Source of the DNA: Kofleriaceae bacterium | GTDB taxonomy: Bacteria > Myxococcota_A > Polyangia > Haliangiales > Haliangiaceae | Direction: 5' to 3' | Assembly (NCBI GenBank): GCA_041389925.1 | Contig: JAWKQX010000006.1 | Span: forward strand, 407,837 to 471,836 | DNA length: 64,000 nt | In this document: positions 5,180 to 58,181 of the stretch, one piece after another | Position numbering within the stretch: the stretch's first letter is position 1 | Layout: each line of letters starts with the position of its first letter | Translations under genes and position numbers: made by a program | Notes under the pieces: model-generated | Database searches by the model: none | The model's input: only the letters and a program-made list of their open reading frames with translations | Told to the model about the DNA's origin: nothing

Positions 5180-5191
5180 GGTCGCGCGCGC

Positions 5192-7344: not shown

Positions 7345-7562
7345 GACGGCCCCTTCTATTGCGGATTTCATGCCGAAGTGCAACTCCTCGGACATGAGAT
7401 GTAACTTATTGAAATGGTGTCCTCCATGCCCGATGCGCGGACGCGTTGGAGTAGCTCCGTTCACACCTTGAAGCTTTCCCGTCACACGGCGGCCGACAGG
7501 GGTGTCGTAGATCTCGCCAGCTCGCGATCTCGCGCCGCCGGAGTTCAGCTACGCTAGCGCTC

Positions 7563-8036: not shown

Positions 8037-8045
8037 GGAGCGCTC

Positions 8046-8813: not shown

Positions 8814-8931
8814 CTCCGACGGGGCTACGCCGAGCATCGCGAGTGTGGTGGCTCACGTCCGGCGACGTAGGCTGCGATTGACGCAAGATATCGCGAGCGC
8901 TCCGGAGCAAAGTAGGCGATGCTGTAGCGAC

Positions 8932-9504: not shown

Positions 9505-9585
9505 GCGCGCCCCGCGCCGCGAACGGCGAAGGAACCCGCGCTCCGGGCGCCGGCTTGCGGTACGTTCGTCGCCGGGGGCAACCAT

Positions 9586-10434: not shown

Positions 10435-11167
10435 CCTCGTGGCCGTGGAGCTGGAGATCGGCCCACAGCGGGAGGTGGTCGCTGGCGCGGCGGGCGAGCT
10501 GGGTCTCGGCGCGCGCGAGGTGGGTGACCTCGACGGTGCCGCGCACGTAGAGGCCGTCCAGCGCGCGCATCGGCGCCCACGCGGGGAAGGTCCTGGGCGC
10601 CCGGTTGGGCCCACGGAAGCCGGCGGGCTCCATGAGCTTCCACAGGCCGCCGTACACGTCGTTCAGATCGCCGCCGACGAGGATGGGCGTGTCGTGGTGG
10701 AGGTTGGCGAAGGGGTGACACTCCAGGAACTTGCGGAGCTGGATCTTGCGCTCGAACTCGGCGAGGCCGAGGTGCAGGTTGAAGATGTGCATCGCGCGGT
10801 CCAGGTGGTCGTGCCGGACGCGCAGCGCCGCGTGGAGCACGCTGCGGCGCTTCTTGAGGCGGATGGACAGATCGATGTTGGAGGTCTCGGTGATCGGGAA
10901 CCGGCTCAGGATCGCGTTGCCGTACTCGCCGCCGCCGCGCACGGTGACGTTGCCGAACCAGGTGCGGTGGTGCAGGCCGGTGAGCTCCGCGAGGCGATCG
11001 ACCTGACGATCTCCGTTGGAGCGGCGGGCGCCGTCATCCACCTCCTGGAGCAGCACGATGTCCGGCTCCAGCGCGCTGAGCGCGGCGGCGGTGCGTTGCG
11101 GATCGTACCGGCGGTCGAGGCCGCCGATGCACTTGTGGATGTTGTAGGTGACGACGCGGACCTTCAA
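10424..11167 (-). CDS. Endonuclease/exonuclease/phosphatase (EEP) family protein
   Basis: [21 protein letters not shown] ... DIVLLQEVD ... [10 protein letters not shown] ... HLDLG is typical EEP. True start uncertain: no ATG; TTG at 11167 chosen. The ORF extends to 11317. Confidence 0.6.
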
Positions 11168-38323: not shown

Positions 38324-39313
38324 ATGCGCCGGCACCTTGTCGCTCTCGCGTTGGCAACCGCCGCCGTGGTCTCCTCGGACGCTCGCGCCGACGTCAACGA
38401 TCTCGTGCTCTCGCGGCTCGCGCGCCGGGTGGAGCAAGGGGGCATGGTCACCGCGGTGATCCCGCAGAGCCGTGACCTGCGCGCGCTCGCCTCGCAGCTC
38501 GGCGTGGTGCTCGCGCCGCACCTGCTGACGCCAGCGGACACGCTCGGCTTCGGCGGCGTGCAGTTCTCCGTGGACCTCAGCACGACGCAGGTCGACCGCG
38601 ACGCGGCGTACTGGCGCGCCGCCGAGGGCAGCCCCGATCCCGACGGCACCGGCGGCGGCAAGCACACCGCCGGCTACCTCTCCACGATCGGGTTCTTCGC
38701 GCGCAAGGGCATGTGGTTCCCGGCGCCGGCGATGGAGCTGGGCGGCGGCGCGGTGCACCTCAAGGACTCGAACATGTGGGCGGGGCAGCTCTACGCCAAG
38801 CTCGCGCTGCAGGAGGGCTATCACGACTACCCGCTGCCCAGCCTGGCGCTGCGCGGCGCGGTGTCGCGCTTGATGACCCAGCGCGAGCTCGATCTCACGG
38901 TCATCTCGCTCGACGCATCCCTCTCCAAGCACATCGGCATCCTGGGGACGTGGAACCTCAACCCGTACGCCGGCTGGAACACCCTGCTCATCATCCCGCG
39001 CAGCGAGGTCATCGATCCGACGCCCGAGATTGATCCGCTCGAGCCGGGGATGCCCAACGATCGCGCGCTCAACTTCGTCTTCAAGGATCAGGACCCGATC
39101 TTGCGGCACCGCGTGTTCCTGGGCGCCAAGGCGCAGTTCGGGGCGGTGATGATCACCGTCGAAGGGCAGCTCGCGCTCGCCGGCACCTCGGTCGATGATC
39201 GAGGGGGCACCAGCGCGAAGTGTGAGGCGGTCTCGCAGACCGAGCAGTGTGACGCGCAGGACTCCGCGGCGAAGCAGCAGAGCTTGACGATCTCCGCCGG
39301 GCTCGAGTTCTAG
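38324..39313 (+). CDS. Secreted hypothetical protein, possible outer-membrane beta-barrel
   Basis: Signal peptide MRRHLVALALATAAVVSSDARA. Alternating amphipathic pattern. Terminal ... SLTISAGLEF with C-terminal Phe is typical of OMP beta-barrels. No catalytic motif. Confidence 0.5.
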   Translation: MRRHLVALALATAAVVSSDARADVNDLVLSRLARRVEQGGMVTAVIPQSRDLRALASQLGVVLAPHLLTPADTLGFGGVQFSVDLSTTQVDRDAAYWRAAEGSPDPDGTGGGKHTAGYLSTIGFFARKGMWFPAPAMELGGGAVHLKDSNMWAGQLYAKLALQEGYHDYPLPSLALRGAVSRLMTQRELDLTVISLDASLSKHIGILGTWNLNPYAGWNTLLIIPRSEVIDPTPEIDPLEPGMPNDRALNFVFKDQDPILRHRVFLGAKAQFGAVMITVEGQLALAGTSVDDRGGTSAKCEAVSQTEQCDAQDSAAKQQSLTISAGLEF

Positions 39314-39466: not shown

Positions 39467-42400
39467 GTGCTGCCTCGTCGACTCCCCTCACATCCTCTCC
39501 TCGTAGGTGCTCTCTTCCTCGCCGTCGCCGCGTGCGGAGGCGGCGGCGATCCCGACCAGCCGAGCGTCGTCGAGCAGGCGGTGTGGAGCAACGGCGACTT
39601 CGAGAGCGACCCCATCGGCACCACGCCGCCGACCGGGTGGACGCTCACCTCGAACCTCCACCCCGGGATCACCGACACGCGACCGTCGCCGCAGACCTTC
39701 TCCAGCCTCAACCTCGCGGCGGGTGGAACGCTGATGACCGCGGTCGTCGGTGGCGCGCCGGAGTCGCAGCTCGATCTCGATCTGCTCACCAACGGCGTGC
39801 TGCGCTTCCCCAAGTACGGGCAGCGCGCGACGAGGGTCAACTCCAACGCGGCGAACGCGGGCACCTCGCGCAACGTCAACACGCTCAAGCAGACCATGAC
39901 GGTGAGCCTGGGCGACGTCGATCCCGTCGACAACAAGGTCCACGTGCGCTTCGCGGTGGCCCCGGTGCTGGAGAACCCCGGCCACTCGTACACGTCGCAG
40001 CCGTACTACTTCGTCCGGCTGCAGAACCTGACGAAGGGCCTCACCGTCTACCAGGACTTCAACGCCAGCGGGCAGCCTGGCGTGCCGTGGCAGAACTTCA
40101 CGGACACGAGCGGGCAGGCGGCGCAGTTCACCAACTGGCAGCTCGTCGACGTCTCCCCGGGGGACACCCAGCTCGCGGTGGGGGACCAGGTGGAGCTGAT
40201 GGTCATCGCCGCGGGCTGCTCCGCCGGGGGTCACTGGGGGCACGTCTACGTCGACGCGGTGGGCTCCGGCGTACCGGGCCTGTACTCGTGGGCGACCGGC
40301 CCGCAGCTCGCCAACGCGGGCTCCACGATCACCTACACGCTCAACTACAAGAACGGCGGCACCACCACGACCAACGGCACCCGGCTCGACTTCGTCACAC
40401 CGCCGGACACGACGTTCCAGTCGGTGAGCCTCGGCGCCGCGTGCACCACGCCCGCCGTGGGCGCCACCGGCACGGTGAGCTGCCCGATCGGCACGCTCGC
40501 CAACGGCTCGACGGGCTCCTTCCAGGTCACCGTGAACATCCCGCCGGCGACGCCGAACGGTACCGTCATCCTCAACGGCAACTACTCCATCTACGCCACC
40601 GGCATCTCGGCGCTGATCGGACCCAAGGTCTTCACCACCGTCACCAACTCGGTGTCGTACGCCGACCTCGGCGTGACGATCAGCGACGGCGTCGCGGCGA
40701 TCGCGTGGGGTCAGCCCACCACGTACACCATCGACGTGACCAACGACGGTCCGGTGGCGGCGCCGGTGGCCACGGTGACCGACACCATGCCGGCGCAGCT
40801 CACCGGCGTGACCTGGACGTGCGCGGCCAGCGGCGGCGGCACGTGCACCGCGTCGGGGAGCGGCAACATCAATGACGCGGTGTCGCTGCCGGTCGGCGCG
40901 CACCTCGTCTACACCGTGTCGGCGGCGATCATCGCCGGCTCGGGGAGCGGCCAGGTGATCAACACCGTCACGGTCGCCACCGGCGGCGGGGTCACCGATC
41001 CCGACACCACGAACAACACCGCGCTCGACACCGACGCGATCGGCACGCTGCGCACGCTGACCTTGACCAAGCTGGGGACGGTCTCGGGCGGCCTGGTCAG
41101 CTCGGTGCCGACCTCGATCTCGTGCGGCACCGGCTGCGCCAGCGACAGCGGCCAGTTCCTCGACGGCTCGCAGGTGGTCCTCACCGCGGCGCCGGTGGTG
41201 GGCGCGACCTTCACCGGCTGGGGTGGGGCCTGCTCCGGCACCGCGACGAGCTGCACCGTGACGATGACCGGCGACCAGAGCGTGACGGCGTCCTTCACCG
41301 GCGCGCCCGCGGCGATCAGCGTGGTCGGCGGCGGAGCGCAGAGCACGACGATCAACACCGCCTTCGCCTCGCCGCTGCAGGTCCTGGTGACGGACGCCGG
41401 GGGCATCCCGGTGCCCGGCGCCGCGGTCGCCTTCGCCGCGCCGGGCAGCGGCGCCTCGGCGACCTTGAGCGCGACCACCGCGACCACCAACGCCGCCGGT
41501 CTCGCCAGCGTCACCGCGACGGCGAACGGCACCGCCGGGACCTACTCGGTCACCGCCACGGTCAGCGGCGTGCCCCCGGCCTCGTTCTCGCTGAGCAACG
41601 TCGGCATCCCGACCTCGATCAGCGTGGTCAGCGGCAGCGGCCAGAGCGCCACGGTGAACACCGCCTTCGCGGCGCAGCTCGTCGCGGTGGTCCGAGACGC
41701 GGCGAGCCAGCCCGTCCCCGGGATCACCGTCACCTTCACCCCGCCGGCCAGCGGCGCCGGGGCGACGCTGAGCGCGGCGACCGCGGTCACCAACGCCAGC
41801 GGCCAGGTGAGCCTCAACGCGACCGCGAACACCGTCGCGGGCTCCTACGCGGTGACCGCCTCGGTCGTCGGCGTGGTGACGCCGGCGAGCTTCGCGCTCA
41901 CCAACACGGCCGGCGCGCCCGCGACGTTGACGTTGCTCGGCGCGACGACGCGCTCGGCGACGGTCGACGCGTCGCTGGGGACCTTCACCGCCCAGGTGAC
42001 CGATGCGTTCGGCAACCCGGTGTCGGGCGTCACCTTGACCTTCAGCGCGCCCGGCAGCGGCGCGACCGCGCTGCTCAGCAGCGGCACCTCCGTGACCAAC
42101 GCGAGCGGCCAGGCCAGCATCACCGCCACCGCGGGCGCCGTCGCCGGCTCGTACGCCCTCATCGTGAGCGGCACGGGCCTCGCCTCGCAGAGCTTCGCGC
42201 TCACCAACACCGCGGGCGCGCCGGCGTCGCTGGCCATCGTCAGCGGCGACAACCAGCAGGCCACCGTCGACGGCGCGTTCGCGCCGCTCGTCGTCGTGGT
42301 GCGCGACGGCCACGGGAACCCGGTGCCCGGCGCCACCGTGAGCTACGCGGCGCCTGGCGCCGGCGCCACCGCGGTCGTCACGCCGTCCGCGATCACCGAC

Positions 42401-45400
42401 GCCGCGGGGCAAGCGAGCGCCGCCGCGACGGCGGGCGCGATCGCCGGGGCGTTCGCCGTCACCGCCTCGGTCACCGGCGTCACGCCGGTGTCGTTCGCGC
42501 TGGAGAACCTCGCCGGCGCGCCGGCCGCGATCTCGATCGCCTCCGGCTCTCCGCAGACCACCGCGGTGACGACCGCCTTCTCCGCGCCGCTGGTGATCCG
42601 CGTCGTCGATGTGCACGGCAACGCCGTGCCGGGCGCCGCCGTGACGTTCACGCCGCCGGGCAGCGGCGCCTCCGCGAGCCTCAGCGCCACCACGGTGAGC
42701 ACCGACGCCAGCGGCCTCGCGCAGAGCGACGCCACCGCCAACACGGTCGCCGGCAGCTACGCGGTCACCGCCTCGGTCGCCGGCGTGGCCACCCCCGCGA
42801 GCTTCGCGCTCACCAACACCGCGGGTCCGGCGACCACGCTGACCCTGCTGGCGCCGACCTCGCGCACCTCGGTGGTCACCGGCTCGCTCGGCACGCTCAC
42901 CGCGCAGCTCCGCGATGCGTTCGGCAACCCGGTGCCCGGCGCGACGGTGTCGTTCAGCGCGCCGGCGTCCGGCGCCACCGCGACGCTCAGCGCCGGCTCC
43001 GCCACGACCAACGCGAGCGGCCAGGCCAGCATCACCGCGACCGCGGGCACCATCGCCGGCGCGTTCGCGATCACCGTGAGCGCCACCGGCACCGTCTCGC
43101 AGACCTTCCTGATCACGACGACGCCCGGCGCGCCCGCATCGCTGTCGATCGTCAGCGGCGATCCGCAGAGCGCGGTGGTCGACGCCGCGTTCGCGCCGCT
43201 CGTCGTGGCGGTGCATGACGCCCACGGCAACGTGGTGCCGGGGGCGACCGTGACCTTCACCGCGCCCGGCGCCGGCGCCACGGCGAGCGTCGACGGCAGC
43301 GCGGACACCGACGGCCTGGGCGTGGCGACCGCCGCGGCCACCGCGGGCACCGTCGCCGGCAGCTACACGGTGGTCGCGTCGCTCGGCGCGCTCGCGCCGG
43401 TCTCCTTCACCTTGCAGAACCTGCCCGGCGCGCCGGCCTCGCTCGCGCTCGTCGGTGGCGGCGATCAGAGCGCCGTGGTCACCACGCCGTTCGGCTCCCC
43501 GATCGCGGTGCGCGTGCTCGACGCGCACGGCAACCCGGTGCCCGGCGCGACCGTCACCTTCACCCCGCCGGGCGCCGGCGCCTCCGCGACCCTCAGCGCG
43601 TCGGTCGTGACCAGCGACGCCAGCGGCGTCGCGCAGATCAGCGCGACCGCCAACACGGTGGCCGGCGCGTACGCGGTCGGCGTCGCCGTCGCCGGCGTGG
43701 CGACCCCGGTGAGCGTGGCGCTCACCAACACCCCGGGCGCGCCGGCGTCGATCAGCGTGACCTCCGGCGGCGCGCAGAGCACCGTCATCGAGACCGCGTT
43801 CCCGCTCCCGCTCGGGGTGATCGTCCAGGACGCGCATGGCAACCCGGTGCCCGGCGCGACCGTCTCGTTCTCCGCGCCGGCCAGCGGCGCCACCGCGGCG
43901 CTGTCCACCTCGACGCTCACCACCGACGGCGGCGGCCTCGCGCAGAGCTCCGCTACCGCGAACTCGATCTCGGGCAGCTACCTGATCACGGCCGCGGTCG
44001 CGGGCGTCGTCACCTCGGCGCAGTTCAGCCTGCGCAACACCGCGGGCGTCGCGGCGACCATCGACATCGTCTCGGGCGGCGCGCAGGAGACCGTGGTCGC
44101 CACGCCGTTCCCGCAGCCGCTCGTCGTCCTGCTGCGCGACGCCTCGGGGAACCCGGTGCCGGGCGTCTCGGTGCGCTTCGCCGCGCCGCCGAGCTCGCCG
44201 AGCGCCGCGCTCTCCGCGGAGGTCGCGCTGAGCGATGACGCCGGCCTCGCGACCATCACCGCGACCGCGGACCCGCGGGCGGGCAGCTACGACGTCACCG
44301 CCGAGCTGCGGCCCGGCGTGACCGCGACCTTCTTCCTGCGCAACCTGCCCGGCGCGCCCGCGCAGCTCCGCGTCGGCGCGGCCAGCTCGCCGCAGTCCGC
44401 CACCGTGCTGACCGACTTCGTCGAGACCTTGCTGGTGCGCGTCGAGGACGCGTTCGGCAACCCGGTGCCGGGCGTGACCGTCAGCTACCAGGCGCCCGGC
44501 GCCGGCGCGACCGCGACCCTGACCTCCTCGACCGCCGTCAGCGACACGTTCGGCGAGTGCGAGGTCGGGGCCACCGCGGGTGCGGTGACCGGCCTCTACC
44601 TGGTGACCGCGACGGTGTCCGGCGTCGCCGACGCGGCCGTCTTCGCGCTCACCAACCTCGCCGGCGCCCCGACCTCCGTGGTCGCGGAGGCCGGCGCGGC
44701 GCAGGCGACCGAGGTGGACACCGACTTCGCCGAGCCGCTCACCGTGCGCGTGCTCGACGCGCTCGGCAACCCGGTGCCGTCCGCGGTGGTCAGCTTCGCG
44801 GCGGCCGCCACGCCGGCGACCGCGGCCCTGTCGGCGTCGTCGGTGGCCACCGACGGCGAAGGCCTCGCCTCGGTGATCGCCCACGCGAGCACCGTGACCG
44901 GCAGCCACGTCGCGACCGCGGTCGTCGACGGCGCCGCCACCCCGGTGATCTTCTCGCTCACCAACACGCCCGGCGCGCCGGACTCGGTCACCGTCGGCGC
45001 GGTGGCCTCGCCGCAGCAGGCGGAGGTGACCACCGCGTACCCGCACGACCTGCTGGTGCGCGTCGCCGACCGCTTCGGCAACGCGATCCCCGGCGTCGAG
45101 GTCACCTACGCGGCTCCGGACAGCGGCGCCACCGGCGTCCTGTCGTCGACCACCTCCACCAGCGATGACGCCGGGCTCGCGTCCGTCGGGATCGTCGCGG
45201 GGACGCAGGCCGGCCCGTTCACGGTGACGGCCTCGGTCGCCGGCGTGCTCCTCTCGGCGCAGTTCCAGCTCACCAACCTCGCCGGCGCGGCGCACACGCT
45301 GTCGCTGGTCTCCGGCGACGGTCAGGTGACCACCGTCGACACGGCGTTCGCGGAGCTGCTCCTGGTGCGCGTGACCGACATCTTCGGCAACCCGGTGGCG

Positions 45401-47545
45401 GACGAGCAGGTCACCTTCACCGCCGAGGGCAGCTCGGCCACCGCCAGCCTGGGCACGCTCAGCGTGGCCACCGACGCGCAGGGCCTGGCGAGCACCTCGG
45501 CGACGGCCAACACCGTCTCCGGCAGCTACCTGGTCCGCGCCACCTCGGCGCAGGGTGCCACGCCGGTGGCGTTCACGCTGCGCAACGCCGCGGACGTGCC
45601 CGCGACGATCATCGTCGCCCCCGCCGCTACGCCGCAGAGCGCCGAGGTGCTGCACGCGTACACCGCGCCCCTGGAGGTGACCGTCCTGGATCGCTTCGGC
45701 AACCCGGTGCCCGGCGCGGTCGTGACCTACACGAGCGCAACGGGCCCCGGCGCCTCGCTGTCCGCCGCGCAGGTGACCACCGATGGCACCGGCGCCGCCC
45801 AGGTGCTCGCCATCGCCGACGAGGTCGCGGGCGCGTATCAGGTCCAGGCCACCGTGGACGGCGTCGCCACCCCGGCGACGTTCGAGCTGACCAACACCGC
45901 GTCCGCGCCCGGCCGCGTCGTCGTCGCGCGCGGCGACGGCCAGAGCGCGATGGCGCTGGTCGCGTACGCCGAGCCGCTGGTGTTCCTCGTGCTCGACGGC
46001 TTCGGCAACCCGGTGCCGGGCGTCAGCCTGAGCGTCACGATGCCGAGCGACGGTCCGCGCGCCGCGCTGACCACGCAGGTGATCGGCTCCGACGCGGCCG
46101 GCGAGGTCGGCCTGCAGCTCCAGGCCGCCGATGAGCTCGGCACGTTCCAGATCTCCGCGACCGCTCCCGGCGTGGCCGTGGCCGCGACCGCGTCGCTGTC
46201 GGTGACGCCGATCCCGACCGAGGTGACCGCCAGCGCGCCAAAGAGCGTCGCGGTGGACCAGCCGGCGCAGGTCACCATCGAGGTGTCGGCCCCCGTCGGT
46301 ACGCCCGCGGGTGAGCTCGAGATCGTGGTCGACGGCGGAGCCGCGGTGGTGTCCGCGACCCTGAAGGGAGGCCGCGTCGTCGCCCCGGTGCCGCTGAGCG
46401 TGACCGGCGCGCACACGCTCGCCGTGCGCTACCCGGCGCAGGGGCCGTTCGAGGCCAGCGAGACCGCGGCGTTCACCATCGACGCGACCGGCGACTCGGG
46501 CACGCTCTCGGGCTCCGGCGGCTGCGATAGCGGCGGCGGCGGCTCGCTCGCGCTCGGCCTGCTCGTGCTCGCGTTCGCGGGGGCTCGTCGGCGGCGCGCC
46601 GGGGCCGCCGCCTCAGCGCTCGCGCTCGCGCTCGTCGCGTGGGCCGGCTCGCCGGCGCGCGCGCAGGAAGACACCACGCGCTCGATCAACCGCTTCCACG
46701 CCGCCTCCGCCGAGAGCGACTGGTTCGCGCTCGACTCGCTGGCGTTCGACGGCGCGCTCGACGTCGCCTTCGCGCAGACCTGGGACTACGCGCACCGCCC
46801 GCTGGTGGTGTACGACGCCGACGGCACCGCCCGCGCCGCGGTGATCCGCAACGCCTTCGTCGCGCACACCGGCGCGAGCGTGACCCTCCGCGAGCGCTTC
46901 CGCCTCTCCACGTCCGTGCCGATGGCGGTGTTCCAGAACGGCGATGACGGGACCTTCAACGGCGAGCCCCTCGCCGGTCCGAAGTTCGCCTTCGGCGACA
47001 TGCTGCTCGCCGGTGACGTGCGCGTGCTCGGCGCCGCCGGCGCCCCGCTCCGCGCCGCGGTCGGCCTGCGGGTGAGCTTGCCCACCGGCTCGCGGACGCA
47101 CTACATGAGCGACAGCAAGTTCGCGCTGGAGCCGCGCGGCATGATCGCCGGCAGCCGCGGCGCGCTCGAGTACGCCGCGGAGCTCAGCCTGGCGCTGCGC
47201 AGCGAGACCTCGTTCGCCGGGGAGCCCTTCGGCAGCGAGCTCCGCTACGGGGCGAGCTGCGGGGCGCGGCTCCTGGAGCGCCGGCTCCTGATCGGCCCTG
47301 AGCTCAGCGGCGCGCTCCCGCTCACCAGCGGCAGCGCCACCGGCCACCCGACGGAGCTCGGCGTGGGCGCTCACTACGCGGTGGCGCCGGACGTGCTGCT
47401 CGGCGCGGGGCTGTCCGCGGGTCTGGTCAACGCCGTCGGCACGCCCGATCAGCGCCTCTTCCTCTCGGTCTCGTGGTCGCCGACCGCGGTCGCGGCGCGG
47501 CGGCGCGCGTCCACCGACGCCATCGACGCCGTCGCCCGTCGCTGA
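39467..47545 (+). CDS. Giant cell-surface lipoprotein adhesin: N-terminal domain, 2x DUF11, InlB B-repeat, about 16 Big_1 (bacterial Ig-like) repeats, MYXO-CTERM-like motif, then C-terminal beta-barrel-like domain
   Basis: GTG start. Lipobox LFLAVAAC. DUF11-like segments (GSTITYTLNYKNGG ... ; QPTTYTIDVTNDGPVAA ... DPDTTNNTALD). InlB-B-like segment (TLTKLGTVSGGLVSS ... CTVTMTGDQSVTASFT). About 99-aa repeats with consensus TNTAGAPASLxIVSGDxQSAxVxTAFAxPLVVxVxDAxGNPVPGAxVTFxAPxSGAxAxLSxxxxxTxAxGxAxxxATANTVAGSYxVTASVxGVxTPxxFxLTN. GCDSGGGGSLALGLLVLAFAGARRRR at 46511..46600. About 315 further residues in frame. Confidence 0.8.
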   Translation: MLPRRLPSHPLLVGALFLAVAACGGGGDPDQPSVVEQAVWSNGDFESDPIGTTPPTGWTLTSNLHPGITDTRPSPQTFSSLNLAAGGTLMTAVVGGAPESQLDLDLLTNGVLRFPKYGQRATRVNSNAANAGTSRNVNTLKQTMTVSLGDVDPVDNKVHVRFAVAPVLENPGHSYTSQPYYFVRLQNLTKGLTVYQDFNASGQPGVPWQNFTDTSGQAAQFTNWQLVDVSPGDTQLAVGDQVELMVIAAGCSAGGHWGHVYVDAVGSGVPGLYSWATGPQLANAGSTITYTLNYKNGGTTTTNGTRLDFVTPPDTTFQSVSLGAACTTPAVGATGTVSCPIGTLANGSTGSFQVTVNIPPATPNGTVILNGNYSIYATGISALIGPKVFTTVTNSVSYADLGVTISDGVAAIAWGQPTTYTIDVTNDGPVAAPVATVTDTMPAQLTGVTWTCAASGGGTCTASGSGNINDAVSLPVGAHLVYTVSAAIIAGSGSGQVINTVTVATGGGVTDPDTTNNTALDTDAIGTLRTLTLTKLGTVSGGLVSSVPTSISCGTGCASDSGQFLDGSQVVLTAAPVVGATFTGWGGACSGTATSCTVTMTGDQSVTASFTGAPAAISVVGGGAQSTTINTAFASPLQVLVTDAGGIPVPGAAVAFAAPGSGASATLSATTATTNAAGLASVTATANGTAGTYSVTATVSGVPPASFSLSNVGIPTSISVVSGSGQSATVNTAFAAQLVAVVRDAASQPVPGITVTFTPPASGAGATLSAATAVTNASGQVSLNATANTVAGSYAVTASVVGVVTPASFALTNTAGAPATLTLLGATTRSATVDASLGTFTAQVTDAFGNPVSGVTLTFSAPGSGATALLSSGTSVTNASGQASITATAGAVAGSYALIVSGTGLASQSFALTNTAGAPASLAIVSGDNQQATVDGAFAPLVVVVRDGHGNPVPGATVSYAAPGAGATAVVTPSAITDAAGQASAAATAGAIAGAFAVTASVTGVTPVSFALENLAGAPAAISIASGSPQTTAVTTAFSAPLVIRVVDVHGNAVPGAAVTFTPPGSGASASLSATTVSTDASGLAQSDATANTVAGSYAVTASVAGVATPASFALTNTAGPATTLTLLAPTSRTSVVTGSLGTLTAQLRDAFGNPVPGATVSFSAPASGATATLSAGSATTNASGQASITATAGTIAGAFAITVSATGTVSQTFLITTTPGAPASLSIVSGDPQSAVVDAAFAPLVVAVHDAHGNVVPGATVTFTAPGAGATASVDGSADTDGLGVATAAATAGTVAGSYTVVASLGALAPVSFTLQNLPGAPASLALVGGGDQSAVVTTPFGSPIAVRVLDAHGNPVPGATVTFTPPGAGASATLSASVVTSDASGVAQISATANTVAGAYAVGVAVAGVATPVSVALTNTPGAPASISVTSGGAQSTVIETAFPLPLGVIVQDAHGNPVPGATVSFSAPASGATAALSTSTLTTDGGGLAQSSATANSISGSYLITAAVAGVVTSAQFSLRNTAGVAATIDIVSGGAQETVVATPFPQPLVVLLRDASGNPVPGVSVRFAAPPSSPSAALSAEVALSDDAGLATITATADPRAGSYDVTAELRPGVTATFFLRNLPGAPAQLRVGAASSPQSATVLTDFVETLLVRVEDAFGNPVPGVTVSYQAPGAGATATLTSSTAVSDTFGECEVGATAGAVTGLYLVTATVSGVADAAVFALTNLAGAPTSVVAEAGAAQATEVDTDFAEPLTVRVLDALGNPVPSAVVSFAAAATPATAALSASSVATDGEGLASVIAHASTVTGSHVATAVVDGAATPVIFSLTNTPGAPDSVTVGAVASPQQAEVTTAYPHDLLVRVADRFGNAIPGVEVTYAAPDSGATGVLSSTTSTSDDAGLASVGIVAGTQAGPFTVTASVAGVLLSAQFQLTNLAGAAHTLSLVSGDGQVTTVDTAFAELLLVRVTDIFGNPVADEQVTFTAEGSSATASLGTLSVATDAQGLASTSATANTVSGSYLVRATSAQGATPVAFTLRNAADVPATIIVAPAATPQSAEVLHAYTAPLEVTVLDRFGNPVPGAVVTYTSATGPGASLSAAQVTTDGTGAAQVLAIADEVAGAYQVQATVDGVATPATFELTNTASAPGRVVVARGDGQSAMALVAYAEPLVFLVLDGFGNPVPGVSLSVTMPSDGPRAALTTQVIGSDAAGEVGLQLQAADELGTFQISATAPGVAVAATASLSVTPIPTEVTASAPKSVAVDQPAQVTIEVSAPVGTPAGELEIVVDGGAAVVSATLKGGRVVAPVPLSVTGAHTLAVRYPAQGPFEASETAAFTIDATGDSGTLSGSGGCDSGGGGSLALGLLVLAFAGARRRRAGAAASALALALVAWAGSPARAQEDTTRSINRFHAASAESDWFALDSLAFDGALDVAFAQTWDYAHRPLVVYDADGTARAAVIRNAFVAHTGASVTLRERFRLSTSVPMAVFQNGDDGTFNGEPLAGPKFAFGDMLLAGDVRVLGAAGAPLRAAVGLRVSLPTGSRTHYMSDSKFALEPRGMIAGSRGALEYAAELSLALRSETSFAGEPFGSELRYGASCGARLLERRLLIGPELSGALPLTSGSATGHPTELGVGAHYAVAPDVLLGAGLSAGLVNAVGTPDQRLFLSVSWSPTAVAARRRASTDAIDAVARR
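41290..46200 (+). repeat. Tandem array of about 16 near-identical about 297-bp coding repeats (Big_1 units) inside the giant adhesin gene
   Basis: DNA-level recurrence of blocks such as caccaacaccgcgggcgcgccggcgtcgct ... cggcaacccggtgcccggcgcgac ... at about 297-bp period. Protein-level repeat consensus as given for the adhesin. Confidence 0.7.
46511..46600 (+). other. MYXO-CTERM-like sorting motif (Gly-Cys, Gly-rich, hydrophobic helix, RRRR) located internally in the adhesin ORF
   Basis: SGSGGCDSGGGGSLALGLLVLAFAGARRRR fits the tripartite MYXO-CTERM architecture. It is not at the C-terminus. An in-frame GTG at 46565 followed by RRRRAGAAASALALALVAWAGSPARA/QE would make a canonical Sec signal peptide. 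Confidence 0.5.
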
Positions 47546-47611
47546 TCGGGCCGCCCTGCACTTCGATCTGGATCGCGTCGCGCGCTGTGATAGATCTGAA
47601 GGAACGCTCGC

Positions 47612-48481
47612 GTGTCGTCTGGTGGGCGGGAACGAGAGGATCTCAGCGTGTCTCACGAACAAGGTCGGGCGCAGGGCAGCTTCGCCGCGGTGGTGCTCAT
47701 CGCGGGGCTCGGGATCTCGGGCGCGCGCGCCGCGCCCGCGCCGCGCGACGTCGAGAACCCGTTTCCGCTCACCAACTCCACGCCGGTGTCCCGCGAGCGC
47801 AGCGAGCCGCCCGCGGAGCCGGAGGTCTACGAGGTGGAGGTCCAGGACACCGAGCGGAGGGACGAGTTCGGCGAAGCGCCGCCCGTCGCCGAGGCTCCTC
47901 GGCGCCGGAGCCGGCTGCAGGACTACCAGCCGCCGCCGCCGGAGCCGCTCGTGCGGATCACCGCCTCTGGCGGGTACGATGACGGCGCGGCGCCGATCGT
48001 CCAGGTGCGCTATGACGACGGCACCGAGGAGATGCTCCACGCCAACCGCGGGCCATACGTCGCTGCGGGGGTCGCGGTCAACGCGCTCACCCTCGGCGAC
48101 TTGCGCGTCGGCGCCCACGGCGCCGCGTCGCTGAAGTGGGCCCAGCTTCGCGCCGAGGGCGGCTCGGTCACCTACACCGCGGCTTCGCTCGAGGCCAAGG
48201 CGCGCGCGGAGCTGCGCTACCTGCGCCTCGCGTGCGGTATGACGTACACCGTGGCCTCGTCGATCTCCGGCACTGGAACGCTGCACGAGCTCAACGCCGA
48301 TCTCGAGCGCTCGCTCGGCCTGGTCGGCGAGCTCGGGCTGGTCTCAAACGCCCTGGTCAACGGGGGCCGTACGCGCCTCACCGGAGGCGTCCGCTTCATC
48401 AAGCAAGACCTGACGGATCGCGCGACCGGTGCGACGGTCTCCGCGAACTCGATGGGCTTCTTCGGCGGCGTCGAGTACTGA
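47612..48481 (+). CDS. Secreted hypothetical protein, beta-rich
   Basis: Internal signal-like segment FAAVVLIAGLGISGARAAPA. Pro/Glu-rich spacer. Beta-strand-patterned C-terminal domain ending FFGGVEY. Start uncertain. Confidence 0.4.
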   Translation: MSSGGREREDLSVSHEQGRAQGSFAAVVLIAGLGISGARAAPAPRDVENPFPLTNSTPVSRERSEPPAEPEVYEVEVQDTERRDEFGEAPPVAEAPRRRSRLQDYQPPPPEPLVRITASGGYDDGAAPIVQVRYDDGTEEMLHANRGPYVAAGVAVNALTLGDLRVGAHGAASLKWAQLRAEGGSVTYTAASLEAKARAELRYLRLACGMTYTVASSISGTGTLHELNADLERSLGLVGELGLVSNALVNGGRTRLTGGVRFIKQDLTDRATGATVSANSMGFFGGVEY

Positions 48482-52939: not shown

Positions 52940-55756
52940 CTAGCGGGCGCGCGGCGCGCCGTACACGCCGTCGAGCGTGACGCGCTTGCCGTCGCGCAGC
53001 ACCGTGATCTTCACCTTCTCGCCCGGGTGGGCCATGCCGAGCACGGCCATCATCTCGGTGAGGCTGCGGATCTCGTTCGCGTCGAGGCCGACCAGGATGT
53101 CGCCCGCGAGCACACCGGCCTTCGCGGCGGCGCCGCCGGGCACGACGTCGGACACCTTGACGCCCGGCGGGCGCGACGGATCGTCGTCGTACGCCGGGAT
53201 GGTGCCGAGCGAGGCGCCGCCGCGGGGCCGCGACGTGTCCGGCGGCGGCGCGGCCGACTTCACGTAGGTCAGCGGCTCGGCGCGCGTCGCCAGCGTGAGC
53301 GCGAGCGACCCGACGAGCGCGGCGGTCTGCGCGCCGCCGGCGGCGTTGATCGTCGGCGCGTCGTCGGAGGACTTGTGGTAGTCGGCGTGCGCGCCGGTGA
53401 AGAAGTGCAGGACCGGGGCGCCGCCCATGTAGAACGCCATGTGATCGCTCGGCCCGTAGCCCGAGCCGGACATCGCGCACAGGAGCTTGGCCGCGGCGCA
53501 CGCCGGCTCGACGAGCTGCCGCCACTCCTTGGCGGACTCGATGCCGAGCACCTGGAGCTGGTTGAGCCGCATGCGCCCCACCATGTCCATGTTGAGCATC
53601 GCGAAGACCGGCTCCTTGAGCGGCGACTGCTTGACGAAGTGCGACGAGCCAAGGATGCCCATCTCCTCGCCGGAGAAGGCGACGAAGACGACGTCGCGGG
53701 TCAGCTCGCCGCGCCGCGCGGCGAGCTGACGGGCGGCCTCGAGGAGCGCCGCCACGCCGGAGGCGTTATCGTCGGCGCCGTTGTGGATGCCCGGCTTGGC
53801 GTCGAGCGAGCCGGTGCCCGGGCCGCCCTGGCCGAGGTGATCGAGGTGCGCGCCGATCACCACCGGGCCGCCGGCCTTCGCGCCGGGCGCGGCGAGGACG
53901 CCGACGACGTTCTCCGTGCCGACGCGGATCGGCGTGAGCTCCACGCTCAGCTCCACGCGGTGCGCGCCGGGCTTGCGCAGCGCGGCCGCCGCGGCGCGGC
54001 TCACCACGACGATCGGGATGCCGACGTTGCCGCCGCCCGCGGTGGTCAGCGCCGGCAGCGGCTGCTCCTTCGACGCGGGGTCGCCGTCGTCGACGATCAA
54101 GAGGGCCGCGGCGCCCTTGAGCGCGGCCAGGCCGGCCTTGGCGCGGACGTCATCGCCCGCCGCCGCGTCGATGCCGCCGCCGGCCTTGGGCGAGAACCGG
54201 TGCGCCAGCACGATCTTGCCCTTGACGTTCTTGCCACGGTAGTCGTCGCGCTTGGCGGCGGCGTTGACCGAGCCCCAGCCGGCGACGATCACCGGTCCGG
54301 CGACCTTCTTGCTGCCCGACAGCGACGCCGGCGTGAACTGGTCCGCGGGCACCTCCACGCCATCGATCTTCAGCGCGGTCGCCGCGCCGCGGCGCTGGCC
54401 CACGGTGACCTCGAACGGTTGCCGGAAGCTCGCGGCCGCGCCGGCCGCGCCGGGGACGCCCGGCGCCACCCCGGCCTCGCGGAGCTGCTGCTCAACCCAG
54501 TCCTGCGCGTCGCGCAGCCCCTTGGTGCCGAGGCCCCGCCCCTCGCGCGCGTCGTCGGCGAGCCAGGTGACGTCGTTGCGAAAGCGGTCGGCGGCGCTCG
54601 GCGCCGCGGCGGGCGGCGGCGTGCGCACCCAGTCCACCACGAAGACGTTGGTGTCCCGCGGGCCCGCCGGTGCGCCGTTGACGCGGTAGACCTCGCGGCC
54701 GTCCGGCTGCTTGATCACGTCGCGGCGGTTCGACGAGAACGCCAGCTTGCTGCCGTCGGGTGAGAACATCGGGAACCCGTCGAAGCCCTCGGAGTAGGTG
54801 ATGCGCTCGAGCCCGGTGCCGTCGCGGCCGATCGAGAAGATGTCGAACTCGGGGCCGCGCGGGTTCAGGTGGTTGGAGGAGAACAGCACGCGGTCACTCT
54901 TGGGGTCGAAGAACGGTGCGAAGTTGGCGCCGCCGAGGTAGGTGATCTGGCGCGCGTCGCTGCCGTCGGCCTTGGCGACGTAGATCTCGAGCTTGCTCGG
55001 CCGCACCAGGTTCTCCTTGAGCAGGCGCTGGTAGTCCTCGAGTTCGGCGCCGGTGGGTCGCGACGAGCGCCACACGATGTACTGGCAGTCCGCGGAGTAG
55101 AACGCGCCGCCGTCATACCCTGGGGTATGGGTGAGGCGCTTGACGTTCTTGCCGTCGGCGTCCATCCGGTATAGCTCCAGGTCACCGTCGCGCGTGGACG
55201 TGAAGATGATGCTGCCGTCGACGCCGCACACGGTGGCCTCGGCGTCGTAGCCCGGCGTGTCGGTCAGCCGCACCGGGTTCTTGCCGTCGGGGTCCGCGCG
55301 GTAGAGGTCGTAGTCGAACAGGCCCCAGAAGTAGCCCTTGGACATGTCCGGCGGGGTCGGGCAGGCGGCGCCCTTCTCGTGCGTCGACGCGTAGACGACG
55401 CCGCGATCGCCCTGCGTGTAGTACGCGCAGGTGGTGCGGCCGGTGCCGCTCGACAGGAGCGTCGCCTCACCGCCGGTGGCCGGCATCGACATGATCTGAT
55501 CGCACTGGAACGGCGCGCGGTTGGACTGGAAGATCAGCCGGTCGCCGGAGAAGGACCAGTACGCCTCGGCGTTGTCGGCGCCGAAGGTGAGCTGGCGGGC
55601 GTTGGCCAGGTGCACCTCGCGGGGGTCGAGCACGCGCGAGGCGTCGGCGTCGGGCGGGGCCGGATCCGTGGGCGGGCGGACGGCGTTGGGCGACGAGCTA
55701 CACGCCGCGACGCCGATGAGCGCCGCGGCCAGGAGGACAGCGAGACGGGGAGCCAT
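52940..55756 (-). CDS. Multidomain lipoprotein: TolB-like PD40 beta-propeller, PA domain, M28 family zinc aminopeptidase, C-terminal PDZ
   Basis: MAPRLAVLLAAALIGVAAC lipobox. Repeated PD40-type motifs (YRADPDGKNPVRLTDTPGYD ; YRMDADGKNVKRLTHTPGYD ; DIFSIGRDGTGLERITYSEGFD). M28 motifs (IGAHLDHLGQ ... ADDNASGVAALLE ... FSGEEMGILGS ... DH). C-terminal PDZ (GVKVSDVVPGGAAAKAGVLAGDILVGLD). ATG at 55756. The rest of ORF 52940..57748 is off-frame. Confidence 0.8.
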   Translation of the reverse strand: MAPRLAVLLAAALIGVAACSSSPNAVRPPTDPAPPDADASRVLDPREVHLANARQLTFGADNAEAYWSFSGDRLIFQSNRAPFQCDQIMSMPATGGEATLLSSGTGRTTCAYYTQGDRGVVYASTHEKGAACPTPPDMSKGYFWGLFDYDLYRADPDGKNPVRLTDTPGYDAEATVCGVDGSIIFTSTRDGDLELYRMDADGKNVKRLTHTPGYDGGAFYSADCQYIVWRSSRPTGAELEDYQRLLKENLVRPSKLEIYVAKADGSDARQITYLGGANFAPFFDPKSDRVLFSSNHLNPRGPEFDIFSIGRDGTGLERITYSEGFDGFPMFSPDGSKLAFSSNRRDVIKQPDGREVYRVNGAPAGPRDTNVFVVDWVRTPPPAAAPSAADRFRNDVTWLADDAREGRGLGTKGLRDAQDWVEQQLREAGVAPGVPGAAGAAASFRQPFEVTVGQRRGAATALKIDGVEVPADQFTPASLSGSKKVAGPVIVAGWGSVNAAAKRDDYRGKNVKGKIVLAHRFSPKAGGGIDAAAGDDVRAKAGLAALKGAAALLIVDDGDPASKEQPLPALTTAGGGNVGIPIVVVSRAAAAALRKPGAHRVELSVELTPIRVGTENVVGVLAAPGAKAGGPVVIGAHLDHLGQGGPGTGSLDAKPGIHNGADDNASGVAALLEAARQLAARRGELTRDVVFVAFSGEEMGILGSSHFVKQSPLKEPVFAMLNMDMVGRMRLNQLQVLGIESAKEWRQLVEPACAAAKLLCAMSGSGYGPSDHMAFYMGGAPVLHFFTGAHADYHKSSDDAPTINAAGGAQTAALVGSLALTLATRAEPLTYVKSAAPPPDTSRPRGGASLGTIPAYDDDPSRPPGVKVSDVVPGGAAAKAGVLAGDILVGLDANEIRSLTEMMAVLGMAHPGEKVKITVLRDGKRVTLDGVYGAPRAR

Positions 55757-55873
55757 GGCGGCAGGGTACACGAATCCGCCGCGCTGACGACCGCGCGAGG
55801 TCCCGGCGACTTGGCGCTGACTTCTAGCGAGGCGCGTCTTGCTCAACCTGTCTGACAGTGGCAAGAGTCCTGG

Positions 55874-57061
55874 ATGCTCTCGGTCCAGGACGCCATCGCC
55901 AAGATCGCCGCGGCGGTGCGGCCGCTGCCCGACGAGCCCGTCGCCTTGACCGAGGCGGCGGGGCGCGCGCTGGCCGAGCCGATCCACGCGCCGCGCCCGC
56001 TGCCGGGCTTTGACAACTCGGCGATGGACGGGTACGCCGCGCGCAGCGCCGAGCTGCCCGCGACGCTCCCCGTCGCGGGGGTCGCCGCCGCGGGAGCGCC
56101 GCCGCTCGCCGAGCCGGCGCCGGGCGCCGCGGTGCGCATCTTCACGGGCGCGTACCTGCCGCCGGGGCTCGACGCGGTGGTGCTCCAGGAGGACGCCGTC
56201 CGCGACGGCGATCGCGTCACGCTGCCCGCCGCGGCGCCGGGCGCGAACGTGCGCCGGCGCGGCGAGGACGTGGAGGCCGGCGCGCTCGCGCTCGCCGCGG
56301 GCACGCGGCTGGGGCCCGGGGAGCTCGGCCTGCTCGCCGCGCTCGGCGTGGCGGAGCTCCGCGTGCGCCGGCGCCCCCGGGTCGCGATCCTGGCCACCGG
56401 CGACGAGCTGGTCGACGTCCGCGCGCCGCTGGGGCCCGGCCAGCTCGTGGACTCGTCGCGCTACGCGCTGATGTGCGCGGTGCAGGAGCTCGGCGGCGAG
56501 CCGACCTACCTGGGCATCGTCCCCGACGACCGGCGGGCCACCGCGCGCGCCATCGCGACCGCGCTGGCGTACGACGTGGTGCTCACCACCGGCGGCGTCT
56601 CCGTCGGAGATCGCGACTTCGTCAAGGACGCGCTCGCCGACGCCGGCGTGGCGCTGGAGCTGTGGAAGGTGGCGATGAAGCCCGGCAAGCCGCTGGCCTT
56701 CGGGCGCGGCGCGAGCGCGCTGGTGTTCGGCCTGCCCGGCAACCCGGTGTCGTCGATGGTCTCGTTCGAGCTGTTCGTGCGCCCGGCGCTGCGCGCGCTG
56801 CAGGGGCTCGCCGGGCCCGCGCGGCCCCGTGCCCCGGTCGGCCTCGTCGGCGGCTACCGCAAGCCCGCGGGGCGGGCGCACTACCTGCGCGCCCACGTCG
56901 AGCGACGCGGCGACCGCCTCCTCGCCACGCCGCACCCCAAGCAGGGCTCCGCGATGCTGACGTCCCTCGTCGGCATCAACGCACTGGTAGAGATCGAGGC
57001 GGCCGTTTCCGAGGTGGCGCCCGACGAGGTCGTGACGGCGCTGCTGCTGGAGGCGGTGTGA
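55874..57061 (+). CDS. moeA: Molybdopterin molybdenumtransferase MoeA
   Basis: PLPGFDNSAMDGYA ... RIFTGAYLPPGLDAVV ... VLTTGGVSVGDRDFVK ... PGKPLAFG ... GLPGNPVSS are canonical MoeA motifs. Confidence 0.85.
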   Translation: MLSVQDAIAKIAAAVRPLPDEPVALTEAAGRALAEPIHAPRPLPGFDNSAMDGYAARSAELPATLPVAGVAAAGAPPLAEPAPGAAVRIFTGAYLPPGLDAVVLQEDAVRDGDRVTLPAAAPGANVRRRGEDVEAGALALAAGTRLGPGELGLLAALGVAELRVRRRPRVAILATGDELVDVRAPLGPGQLVDSSRYALMCAVQELGGEPTYLGIVPDDRRATARAIATALAYDVVLTTGGVSVGDRDFVKDALADAGVALELWKVAMKPGKPLAFGRGASALVFGLPGNPVSSMVSFELFVRPALRALQGLAGPARPRAPVGLVGGYRKPAGRAHYLRAHVERRGDRLLATPHPKQGSAMLTSLVGINALVEIEAAVSEVAPDEVVTALLLEAV

Positions 57062-57227
57062 GCCCGCGGCGCCTCGTCGCGGGGGAGCGCGCGCCGGGCG
57101 CGCCCACGACGGCGCTGCTCCCAGCAAGCGAGGCGAGTTCGCCTCACCTTCTCGATCGCGCGCGGGCGGAGCGCGCGCCGAGGGCGCCCCGCGCGGCGCC
57201 AACGACTGCCCCGCGCGTGGAGCCTCG

Positions 57228-58181
57228 ATGACCCCCAAGACGACCCTCACGATCACCGACGCGCAGGCCGGGCGCATCGATCGCGCGCTCGCCCTCGCCT
57301 TCCCCGCGGTCGGCCGGCGCCGCCTCGCGGAGTTGTTCGCGCAGGGCGCCGTCCGCGTGGGCGGGCGAGTCGCGCGCAAGGGCGATCGCGTCGGCGCAGG
57401 CGCCGTGGTGGAGCTGGCGAGCGTCCCGGTCGGCCGCGCCGAAGAGCGCCCCGTGCCCGACGAGGCCGCGGCCGCGCGCCTGCAGATCTTGCTGGAGCGG
57501 CCGGAGCTGGTCGCGGTGTGCAAGCCCGCGCCCATGCCATCGCAGCCGCTGCGCGCCGGCGAGCTCGGCAGCGTCGCCTCCGGCCTGGCCTTCCTGTACC
57601 CAGAGTGCGCCGCGCTCGGCGACGATCCGCGCGACGGCGGCGTGGCGCACCGGCTCGACATCGGCACCACCGGCGTCTTGCTCGCGGCGCGCACCGCCGC
57701 GATGTTCCGCGCGCTGCGCGAGGCCTTCTCGGCCGGCCAGGTCGACAAGCGCTACCTCGCGATCACCTGCGGCCGGCCGCTGGCGTCGTCGTGTAGCGCG
57801 TCGCTGTCGCAGCGCGGCCGGCGCGTGGTGGTCGACGAGCAGGAGGGCCTCGGCGCGCACACCGACGTCGAGGTCCTCGCCACCAGCGGCGGCCTCTCCC
57901 TGGTGCGCTGCGCGGCGCAGACCGGGCGGATGCACCAGGTGCGCGCGCACCTCGCCGTGTTGCGCGCGCCGATCCTCGGCGACGCGCTCTACGGAGCGCC
58001 GGAGGTGTCGACGCTGGAGCGCGGCGCCGCGCTCGCGGCCGCGCTGCCCGCCGGCCGCTTCGTGCTGCACGCGGAGTCCGTCGGGTTGCGCCTGGGGCGG
58101 GAGGCGCTGACGGTGACCGCGCCGCTGCCGCCGGAGACGCTGGCCGTGCTGGCCGCGGCGGAGCTGCCGCCGCCAGGGTGA
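57228..58181 (+). CDS. RluA-family 23S rRNA pseudouridine synthase (S4 domain plus catalytic domain)
   Basis: S4-like N-terminus (GRIDRALALAF ... RRRLAELFAQGAVRVGGRV). Catalytic HRLDIGTTGVLLAA with conserved Asp ... GRMHQVRAHLA ... PILGDALYG. Confidence 0.8.
   Translation: MTPKTTLTITDAQAGRIDRALALAFPAVGRRRLAELFAQGAVRVGGRVARKGDRVGAGAVVELASVPVGRAEERPVPDEAAAARLQILLERPELVAVCKPAPMPSQPLRAGELGSVASGLAFLYPECAALGDDPRDGGVAHRLDIGTTGVLLAARTAAMFRALREAFSAGQVDKRYLAITCGRPLASSCSASLSQRGRRVVVDEQEGLGAHTDVEVLATSGGLSLVRCAAQTGRMHQVRAHLAVLRAPILGDALYGAPEVSTLERGAALAAALPAGRFVLHAESVGLRLGREALTVTAPLPPETLAVLAAAELPPPG

Follow-up and report, generated by a model that had tools for sequence, protein, structure and literature searches.

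The subject of this work is a single long gene in a 64,000-nucleotide stretch of DNA from a Kofleriaceae bacterium (contig JAWKQX010000006.1), a member of the Myxococcota; the whole stretch is referred to here as the window. The gene occupies positions 39467-47545 of the forward strand (+) and, according to the open reading frame (ORF) listing and its translation, encodes a precursor of 2692 residues without an in-frame stop. It places in one polypeptide a large repetitive adhesin, an internal MYXO-CTERM-like sorting tag, a second hydrophobic segment and an outer-membrane (OM) beta-barrel. The precursor is identical to NCBI entry MEZ4363474.1, "Ig-like domain-containing protein [Kofleriaceae bacterium]", a protein from a metagenome-assembled genome (MAG). 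The window has a G+C content of about 72%, and the G+C content at third codon positions (GC3) is 0.97 over the whole fusion ORF. In the frame of the fusion, GC3 stays at 0.92-1.00 in every 150-nucleotide segment from 45767 to 47416, the junction between adhesin and barrel included, and falls only past the stop codon. Because this signal is uninterrupted over the junction, one and the same frame is coding throughout. On the opposite strand, a 2308-residue ORF (39488-46414, -) mirrors the adhesin part of the gene and is taken to be a shadow ORF usual in GC-rich DNA, not a gene.

The N-terminal passenger begins with a lipoprotein-type signal peptide (39467-39535, +), whose lipobox LFLAVAA/C23 GGGG can be read from the sequence and is kept in full-length orthologues of the fusion protein. 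Behind it lies a conserved all-beta "head" domain (about residues 24-290; 39536-40336, +), recognized by conservation and an AlphaFold2 (AF2) model and matching no family in Pfam. The head is 66-82% identical in the orthologous loci L006 and L003, and is common to fused proteins with differing stalks, where it carries the pattern VWSNGDFE...QPYYFVRL...GGHWG.VYVD. Its AF2 model is all-beta and of low confidence, with a predicted local distance difference test score (pLDDT) of 54. A DUF11 repeat and an InlB-B-repeat-like region come next (40658-41302, +; Pfam PF01345 and PF18998, TIGR01451). The remainder of the passenger is a stalk of about 16 or more Ig-like repeats of the Big_1/Invasin_D3 type (41303-46489, +), closed by a Big_3_5 domain (residues 2256-2338). 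The Pfam matches in the stalk are PF02369, with an E value of 5e-127 in 16 stretches, PF09134, and PF16640.

The MYXO-CTERM-like tripartite tag lies directly behind the stalk (46490-46597, +) and has been identified from a match to TIGR03382, from its conservation and from a helix in the AF2 model. Translation of this region gives GDSGTLSGSGGC (residues 2342-2353), ending in Cys2353 (codon 46523-46525, +), then a Gly/Ser spacer (residues 2354-2359; 46526-46543, +), a first transmembrane helix, TM1, with the sequence SLALGLLVLAFAGA (residues 2360-2373; 46544-46585, +), and the cluster RRRR (residues 2374-2377; 46586-46597, +). The text from 46508 to 46597 thus reads SGSGGCDSGGGGSLALGLLVLAFAGARRRR, and the invariant Cys2353 belongs to the Gly-rich signature motif SGSGGC. 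The sequence, the AF2 helix and a hydropathy parse agree on the MYXO-CTERM order, in which the helix is followed by the Arg-rich cluster. The NCBIfam cut-offs for the two relevant models are 15.85 bits (TIGR03382, GC_trans_RRR) and 20 bits (TIGR03901); against the former, the tag scores 20.6 to 22.4 bits. A scan of the window for further tags of this kind found this one alone. Unlike a standard MYXO-CTERM, it is not at the extreme C-terminus. An earlier note on this DNA had placed it about 315 residues before the stop, with no stop codon nearby in any frame, and both statements are correct: 315 residues follow RRRR, and neither of the other two frames contains a stop just past it. The lipobox at Cys23 and the MYXO-CTERM Cys2353 together imply that the mature passenger could be lipidated at both ends.

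Immediately behind the Arg cluster, the text continues as AGAAASALALALVAWAGSPARA/QED (46598-46672, +). In an alignment, this second hydrophobic segment pairs with the genuine signal peptides at the N-termini of free-standing TraB-like proteins (P0005-7), with the AxA/Q sites in register. Judged from this comparison, it is a signal peptide kept by the barrel module (AGAAASALALALVAWAGSPARA, residues 2378-2399; 46598-46663, +), with AGAAASALALALVAWAG as h-region and SPARA as c-region, and a signal peptidase I site is predicted after Ala2399 (ARA/QED). The suggestion, already made in the note, of a signal-peptide-like segment ending before QED is therefore borne out by alignment with real signal peptides. 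In the AF2 model, the two hydrophobic segments form separate helices (model residues 66-79, corresponding to 2360-2373, and 86-99, corresponding to 2380-2393).

The C-terminal module is a TraB-like OM beta-barrel of 273 residues (2400-2672; 46664-47482, +), supported by hidden Markov model (HMM) searches, AF2 and Foldseek. It starts with QEDTTRSINRFHAAS and ends with SVSWSP; its N-terminal segment, NRFHAASAESDWFALDS, is conserved and precedes 12 long strands. The C-terminal 326 residues of the protein match the N-terminal half of the NCBIfam TraB model NF033763 (positions 3-299 of 522, E value 8e-15) with 53.8 bits, a score that stands against an equivalog cut-off of 700 bits and thus does not reach the full-length criterion for TraB. 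Against the same model, scores of 102-238 bits were obtained for the free-standing relatives tested. By sequence, the window barrel is a distant paralogue rather than TraB itself. AF2, run with an alignment of 49 sequences, gave a mean pLDDT of 84.8, with values above 90 across the barrel, and 12 strands. A Foldseek search of the PDB placed FapF, which secretes amyloid in Pseudomonas, on top (E value 9e-12, target-normalized template modelling (TM) score 0.61-0.71), with the COG4313 channel 4rl8 next and the autotransporter barrels EstA and AaaA among the weak matches. A sequence search of the PDB with the barrel found no match, nor did Pfam at E values up to 1, PF13557, PF03797, and PF11924 included; several free-standing relatives, though not the window protein, carry precomputed PF13557 matches. 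OmpA (PF00691) and TSP3 (PF02412) domains are absent from the whole protein by Pfam scan, and OmpA is likewise absent from the next ORF downstream by Pfam and NCBIfam scans. The note had described this region as beta-strand-patterned and OM-barrel-like, which the confident 12-stranded model upholds; its start had been set near residue 2385, while the module begins at Q2400 (46664). The ORF had also been said to end in SVSWSP; in fact, a tail of 20 residues (2673-2692), modelled as a helix, and a TGA stop lie beyond (47483-47545, +, with the tail itself at 47483-47542). Among the relatives examined, this tail is confined to the window protein, the others stopping at ...SWSP/WTP or running into TSP3 and OmpA, and it may be the remnant of a lost linker.

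The junction is not peculiar to this genome. An in-frame junction of the same design recurs in about 30 proteins, diverged in sequence and drawn from independent assemblies (JGI, ENA, NCBI, Logan), annotated as Kofleriaceae, Polyangia, and Myxococcaceae, and the barrels of the close orthologues are 47-71% identical to the window barrel. The first homology search recovered the fused fragments P0001 (71% identity), P0003 (49%), and P0004 (50%), together with free-standing proteins made of signal peptide, barrel, TSP3 and OmpA (39% identity). In the contigs of P0001 and P0004, the fusion is in frame and the stops are genuine. A genome scan found four MAG loci. One of them, L006, encodes a full-length orthologue of 2550 residues that matches the window protein in lipobox, head, stalk, tag, signal peptide and barrel. 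Fusions are also present in L005 and L003, and in L003 the hydrophobic segments are spaced by an Arg-rich loop of 25 residues. A profile search combined with an exhaustive search of representatives showed the barrel far from the N-terminus in 24 of the best 150 cluster representatives, and at least 28 cluster representatives carry the adhesin-tag-barrel layout. The comparison with related loci called for in the note therefore gives fusion, not separate genes, in about 30 relatives, and its suggestion of a genuine fusion with a processing site is supported by these in-frame relatives and by the confident barrel.

The design of the junction was parsed by hydropathy in 30 fused sequences and recovered in 27 of them. 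It consists of a G-x-C motif, a spacer, a TM1 of 13-18 residues, a loop, a second hydrophobic segment of 10-20 residues, and the barrel. The loop measures 2-49 residues in these 27 sequences, contains 2-13 Arg or Lys and at most 3 acidic residues, and is always net positive. Even the long loops, of 21-49 residues, stay positive (+13/0 in P0174, +10/-2 in P0107, +7/-3 in L003), which fits the positive-inside rule with a cytoplasmic loop. When the cleavage site was placed by eye, all 27 parsed sequences had a small residue at -3 and Ala at -1, followed by Gln, Asp, or Glu (Arg once). When ten junction segments were trimmed behind the Arg cluster and scored, seven exceeded the TIGR03901 cut-off. 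As far as sequence conservation can tell, the sorting tag in the fused proteins is under selection.

On a rough neighbour-joining tree of the barrels, built without support values, the window protein falls in a subclade of about 14 OmpA-less sequences. This subclade is nested in a larger, all-fused clade that otherwise keeps OmpA, the OmpA-keeping sister members being P0172, P0113, P0076, P0097, P0138, and P0147. Fusions to other passengers stand elsewhere on the tree, with Asp-rich repeats in P0064 and P0104, Cys-rich modules in P0043, P0184, P0197, P0138, and P0107, and a protein of 3422 residues in P0110. Fusions occur in at least six places, and a Fitch count on the same tree gives eight changes, a number that is indicative only. 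The pattern suggests repeated fusion or fission in the barrel family.

Some sequences depart from the layout. In P0190, the start of the head domain is joined straight to the h-region of the signal peptide and the barrel, the stalk and tag being deleted, and in P0003, P0186, and P0180 the barrel gene is preceded by no more than a remnant or part of a junction; P0003 sits within a contig that has no adhesin gene upstream. The existence of such remnant-junction genes, and of the deletion variant, indicates that the barrel can exist alone. It is possible that the four are products of fission, or else collapses of repeats in assembly. In L003, a long-read MAG, the gene at 1922-10864 has its head and its 3' part in the same frame, and about 800 nucleotides between them (5954-6740) are full of in-frame stops; this stretch represents either paired assembly indels or a pseudogene.

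An architecture of this kind is already known, since a Myxococcus protein, MXAN_5598, was described in 2025 by Guo, Haft and Wall (mBio 2025, PMC11980579). In the available text of that paper, MXAN_5598 is presented as a probable fusion of a large MYXO-CTERM adhesin and an OM barrel with OmpA, it is likened to TraA plus TraB, its N-terminal part is proposed to be processed, and cases with an internal MYXO-CTERM are called rare (PMC11980579). The protein has been found in OM vesicle and membrane proteomes. As far as the published description goes, it resembles the window protein in having an N-terminal adhesin, an internal MYXO-CTERM, and a C-terminal OM barrel in one ORF. It differs by its OmpA domain, whereas the window protein is devoid of TSP3 and OmpA, has a Big_1 stalk with a lipobox, and comes from a Kofleriaceae MAG. 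According to the same description, MXAN_5598 lies beside ftsA/ftsZ, unlike the window gene as judged by the neighbours examined; the fused genes P0113 and P0064 do not adjoin ftsA/ftsZ either. A retained signal peptide and a hairpin topology are not mentioned in the available portions of the MXAN_5598 account (PMC11980579). With at least 28 representatives here against the "rare" of that account, in the parts available, the layout is fairly common. What goes further than those parts is how widely the family extends, together with the signal peptide kept by the barrel and a testable model of a hairpin cut by two proteases; the basic idea of the fusion has been published.

The other close relative is the TraA/TraB pair of M. 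xanthus, in which a MYXO-CTERM surface receptor works with a signal-peptide-bearing OM-barrel partner whose barrel is homologous to that of the window protein. The two genes are translationally coupled, their ORFs overlapping by 4 nucleotides (PMC3325183), and the proteins form 1:1 complexes, although they reach the OM independently (PMC12045341). In an AlphaFold model, TraA rests with its base atop the TraB barrel (PMC12045341). According to the available text of the 2025 study, the myxosortase MrtX removes the MYXO-CTERM of TraA in a Cys-dependent manner, and type II secretion is then needed for surface display (PMC11980579). The pair differs from the window protein in consisting of two polypeptides, in the PA14-like variable domain and Cys-rich repeats of TraA, which has no Big_1 stalk, and in the TSP3 and OmpA domains of TraB, of which OmpA is required for exchange. 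TraB without OmpA keeps adhesion and loses OM exchange (PMC12045341).

The TraA/TraB pair and the MXAN_5598-type fusion, rather than autotransporters, are the closest relatives of this design. The type V autotransporters share with it a repetitive passenger (Big_1/Invasin_D3, as in intimin and invasin) and a barrel of the 12-stranded class. They differ in that the window protein has neither PF03797 nor PF11924, and in that a tag, an Arg loop and a signal-peptidase site stand between its passenger and barrel, which would probably be separated at the inner membrane, unlike in type V. The intimin barrel, moreover, is N-terminal, whereas the window barrel is C-terminal and unrelated to it. The FapF and COG4313 (Pput2725) channels are of the same 12-stranded class (E values 9e-12 to 5e-8, TM score 0.61-0.71) but are only 10-16% identical to the window barrel, which is found without an amyloid operon or a hydrocarbon-uptake context.

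Tripartite tags processed at internal positions have been reported elsewhere, for LPXTG (Navarre and Schneewind 1994) and for the ArtA substrate HVO_0405 (Abdul Halim 2017, PMC5350275), both cited in the 2025 study (PMC11980579). These tags, of the sortase and archaeosortase types, resemble the window tag in being recognized away from the extreme C-terminus. Both systems differ in their enzymes, motifs and phyla. To our knowledge, in neither system does the tag lead into a working signal peptide and another exported protein. The bunyavirus Gn-Gc and flavivirus prM-E polyproteins have a stop-transfer anchor and then an internal signal sequence, at which signal peptidase releases two proteins. 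These viral envelope polyproteins provide an analogy of mechanism only; they belong to the eukaryotic endoplasmic reticulum, and no homology is involved.

From these observations we infer, with a probability of roughly 70%, that the window gene is a natural, conserved fusion of two envelope proteins that normally pair in the manner of TraA and TraB and that are released by two proteases from a hairpin. The first module would be a giant lipoprotein-type surface adhesin with head, DUF11 region, about 16 Big_1 repeats and MYXO-CTERM tag, and the second a TraB-like 12-stranded OM barrel that has retained its own signal peptide. The N-terminal signal peptide would begin Sec export of the passenger of about 2350 residues, until the MYXO-CTERM helix (residues 2360-2373) halts transfer and leaves RRRR in the cytoplasm. 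Residues 2378-2394 would then re-insert with the N-terminus in and the C-terminus out, giving a helical hairpin in the inner membrane. RRRR would serve twice, once as the cytoplasmic tail belonging to the tag and once as the signal peptide's n-region. A cut by signal peptidase I after ARA2399 would release the barrel to the periplasm for insertion by the beta-barrel assembly machinery, and a cut by the myxosortase MrtX at the motif of the lipidated Cys2353 would free the adhesin, which could then be displayed at the surface. A single round of translation would in this way yield a 1:1 pair of adhesin and barrel and a discarded hairpin peptide of about 45 residues. The Cys-dependent cleavage of TraA by MrtX, if it may be applied to the fusion, would likewise lead to a lipidated passenger and a barrel in equal amounts, matching the stoichiometry of TraA and TraB. 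The pair would be expected to behave like TraA and TraB, with the adhesin docked on the OM barrel, and would be devoid of the OmpA cell-wall anchor. From the predicted cut to the first barrel strand there are 31 residues, which are mostly conserved and for the most part modelled with pLDDT above 90. Because nothing longer is available to serve as a linker across the periplasm, a tethered barrel could not reach the OM, and cleavage between tag and barrel seems obligatory.

Several points weigh against this interpretation. The topology and both cleavages are, for the window protein and all its fused relatives, ones that we infer. The window tag reaches 15.5 to 16 bits with TIGR03901, below its cut-off, so that the earlier description of the motif as MYXO-CTERM-like stands by the TIGR03382 model and fails by this one. 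No mrtX gene is present within the 64-kb window. The free-standing relatives P0006, P0024, and P0103 are not preceded by a MYXO-CTERM gene, which leaves TraAB as the one case behind an origin of the fusion from an operon. The gain from fusing is not obvious, because TraA and TraB reach the OM independently. Finally, since OmpA-less TraB adheres and does not exchange, the window protein probably does not take part in OM exchange; by analogy, it would act as a pair of adhesin and barrel and not as machinery for exchange.

The alternatives differ in what they make of the junction. If the gene were an artefact, the loss of a stop codon or a frameshift would have joined an adhesin ending in ...RRRR to a separate barrel gene. 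The sequence does come from a MAG, and GC-rich DNA favours long stop-free frames, as the 2308-residue antisense ORF illustrates. The same in-frame junction is, however, found in about 30 independent, diverged sequences, and in most relatives the Arg cluster is directly common to tag and signal peptide; a stop after RRRR exists in neither alternative frame, and GC3 is 0.92-1.00 over the junction. A sequencing error, as considered in the note, is refuted by this conservation and the unbroken codon periodicity, and the artefact is hardly credible. It is also unlikely that the barrel is produced mainly or additionally from an internal start, the in-frame GTG at 46565-46567 (+; Val2367, inside the first helix) or one nearby, as an ordinary secreted pre-protein (M-LAFAGARRRR-AGAAAS...ARA/QED) independent of the adhesin. 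An in-frame GTG or ATG is present within TM1 at all six DNA loci, and barrels such as P0003, P0186, and P0180 can stand alone. These candidates, however, lie at differing positions across the six loci and are the Val and Met codons expected in a GC-rich membrane helix; a Shine-Dalgarno (SD)-like GGAGG precedes a candidate in L003 only, and the other five loci, the window included, have none. No SD-like sequence was found up to 18 nucleotides upstream of GTG 46565, and a scan of 46300-47800 for promoters and terminators, weak because the consensus is uninformative for Myxococcota, found nothing. Of the claim made in the note, the in-frame position of this GTG inside the helix holds, and its use as an internal start finds no support, for want of an SD and of a conserved position. 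Ribosomes translating the adhesin meet no stop in any case, so the fused product would be made regardless.

Two further readings accept the fusion and assign it another use. The barrel may be an OM conduit or insertion partner of the FapF type for its own or a sister lipidated passenger, in a kind of split autotransporter with one pore per passenger. Its closest fold is indeed FapF, a 12-stranded barrel that secretes polypeptide, the EstA barrel was also matched, unrelated passengers are repeatedly fused to the same barrel family, and the published AlphaFold model sets the TraA base atop the TraB barrel. Yet no autotransporter or IAT_beta HMM matches, and a covalent hairpin could not thread the pore, because a cytoplasmic loop and a signal-peptidase site divide passenger and barrel. 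A stalk of 16 folded Ig domains would probably not fit through a 12-stranded barrel, type II secretion is the route of MYXO-CTERM proteins according to the available text of PMC11980579, and TraA and TraB localize to the OM independently of each other (PMC12045341). The reading is accordingly improbable; on the structural model, a role of the FapF-like fold in export in trans is formally open. The "autotransporter logic" of the earlier note reduces to a loose analogy, as two hydrophobic segments, an Arg cluster and a cleavage site intervene and no HMM matches. The tag may otherwise be a relic, with sorting dead, signal peptidase alone cutting and the adhesin held by TM1 in the inner membrane, facing the periplasm. 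Its score under the TIGR03901 cut-off would agree with this, as would the N-terminal lipobox, which already gives an anchor. A relic, however, would not be expected to keep the G-G-C motif and spacer across unrelated passengers or to pass TIGR03901 in 7 of 10 segments, and a head on a 16-repeat Big_1 stalk suits a surface adhesin. We regard a relic as very unlikely.

A wider proposal goes beyond the window gene and is put forward tentatively, as a speculation that is rather unlikely to hold. TraB-like barrels of the FapF class may serve generally as OM partners dedicated to MYXO-CTERM surface proteins, either docking them or even exporting them, and the fused genes would then be true bacterial envelope polyproteins, in which a single Sec-exported chain is cut at an inner-membrane hairpin by myxosortase and signal peptidase I into a stoichiometric pair of passenger and barrel. 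If this were true, it would amount to a "split autotransporter" route apart from type V and type II secretion, and the repeated fusion of Big_1, Cys-rich, and Asp-rich TSP-like passengers would be Rosetta-stone evidence for the partnership.

Neighbours of the window gene include an SLT/LysM transglycosylase and a TatA-like ORF, the latter recognized from translation only. Orphan ORFs with signal-peptide-like starts flank the fusion gene at about 38327-39313 (+) and 47612-48481 (+), and their C-termini are aromatic (...ISAGLEF and ...FGGVEY, respectively). They have no match in Pfam or NCBIfam, and no conserved counterparts adjoin the L003 and L006 orthologues; on both grounds they were rejected as members of the system. 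Farther downstream in the window, a 1603-residue ORF (52940-57751, -) has its PD40, PA, Peptidase_M28, and PDZ domains confined to the C-terminal 620 residues, and is either a very large secreted peptidase or an ORF with an over-extended start. At another locus (L011/L012, 2487-9446), the unrelated fused gene P0064 lies just downstream of YfiO (BamD-type) and of a PQQ_2 beta-propeller gene, which may be BamB-like. The free-standing TraB-like genes P0006 and P0024 (L007-L009) share a conserved neighbourhood, with a divergent HAMP-guanylate cyclase, a Ser/Thr kinase, and a FecR-LysM protein, and a convergent DUF11/CLIPPER protein. In Labilithrix, a second TSP3-OmpA paralogue stands beside a free-standing TraB-like gene.

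The public name "Ig-like domain-containing protein" conceals a second module and an internal tag. The window protein offers a test case for the action of myxosortase on an internal tag, and also for a tag helix and signal peptide acting together as a cleavable hairpin, by which one translation product would give two envelope proteins at a fixed 1:1 ratio. The absence of OmpA from its subclade suggests that adhesin docking is separable from cell-wall anchoring, in parallel to the result with OmpA-less TraB. The recurrence of the fusion, in about 28 representatives with several unrelated passengers on a rough tree, provides evidence at the genome level for a functional partnership of MYXO-CTERM adhesins with TraB-like barrels that reaches well beyond TraAB.

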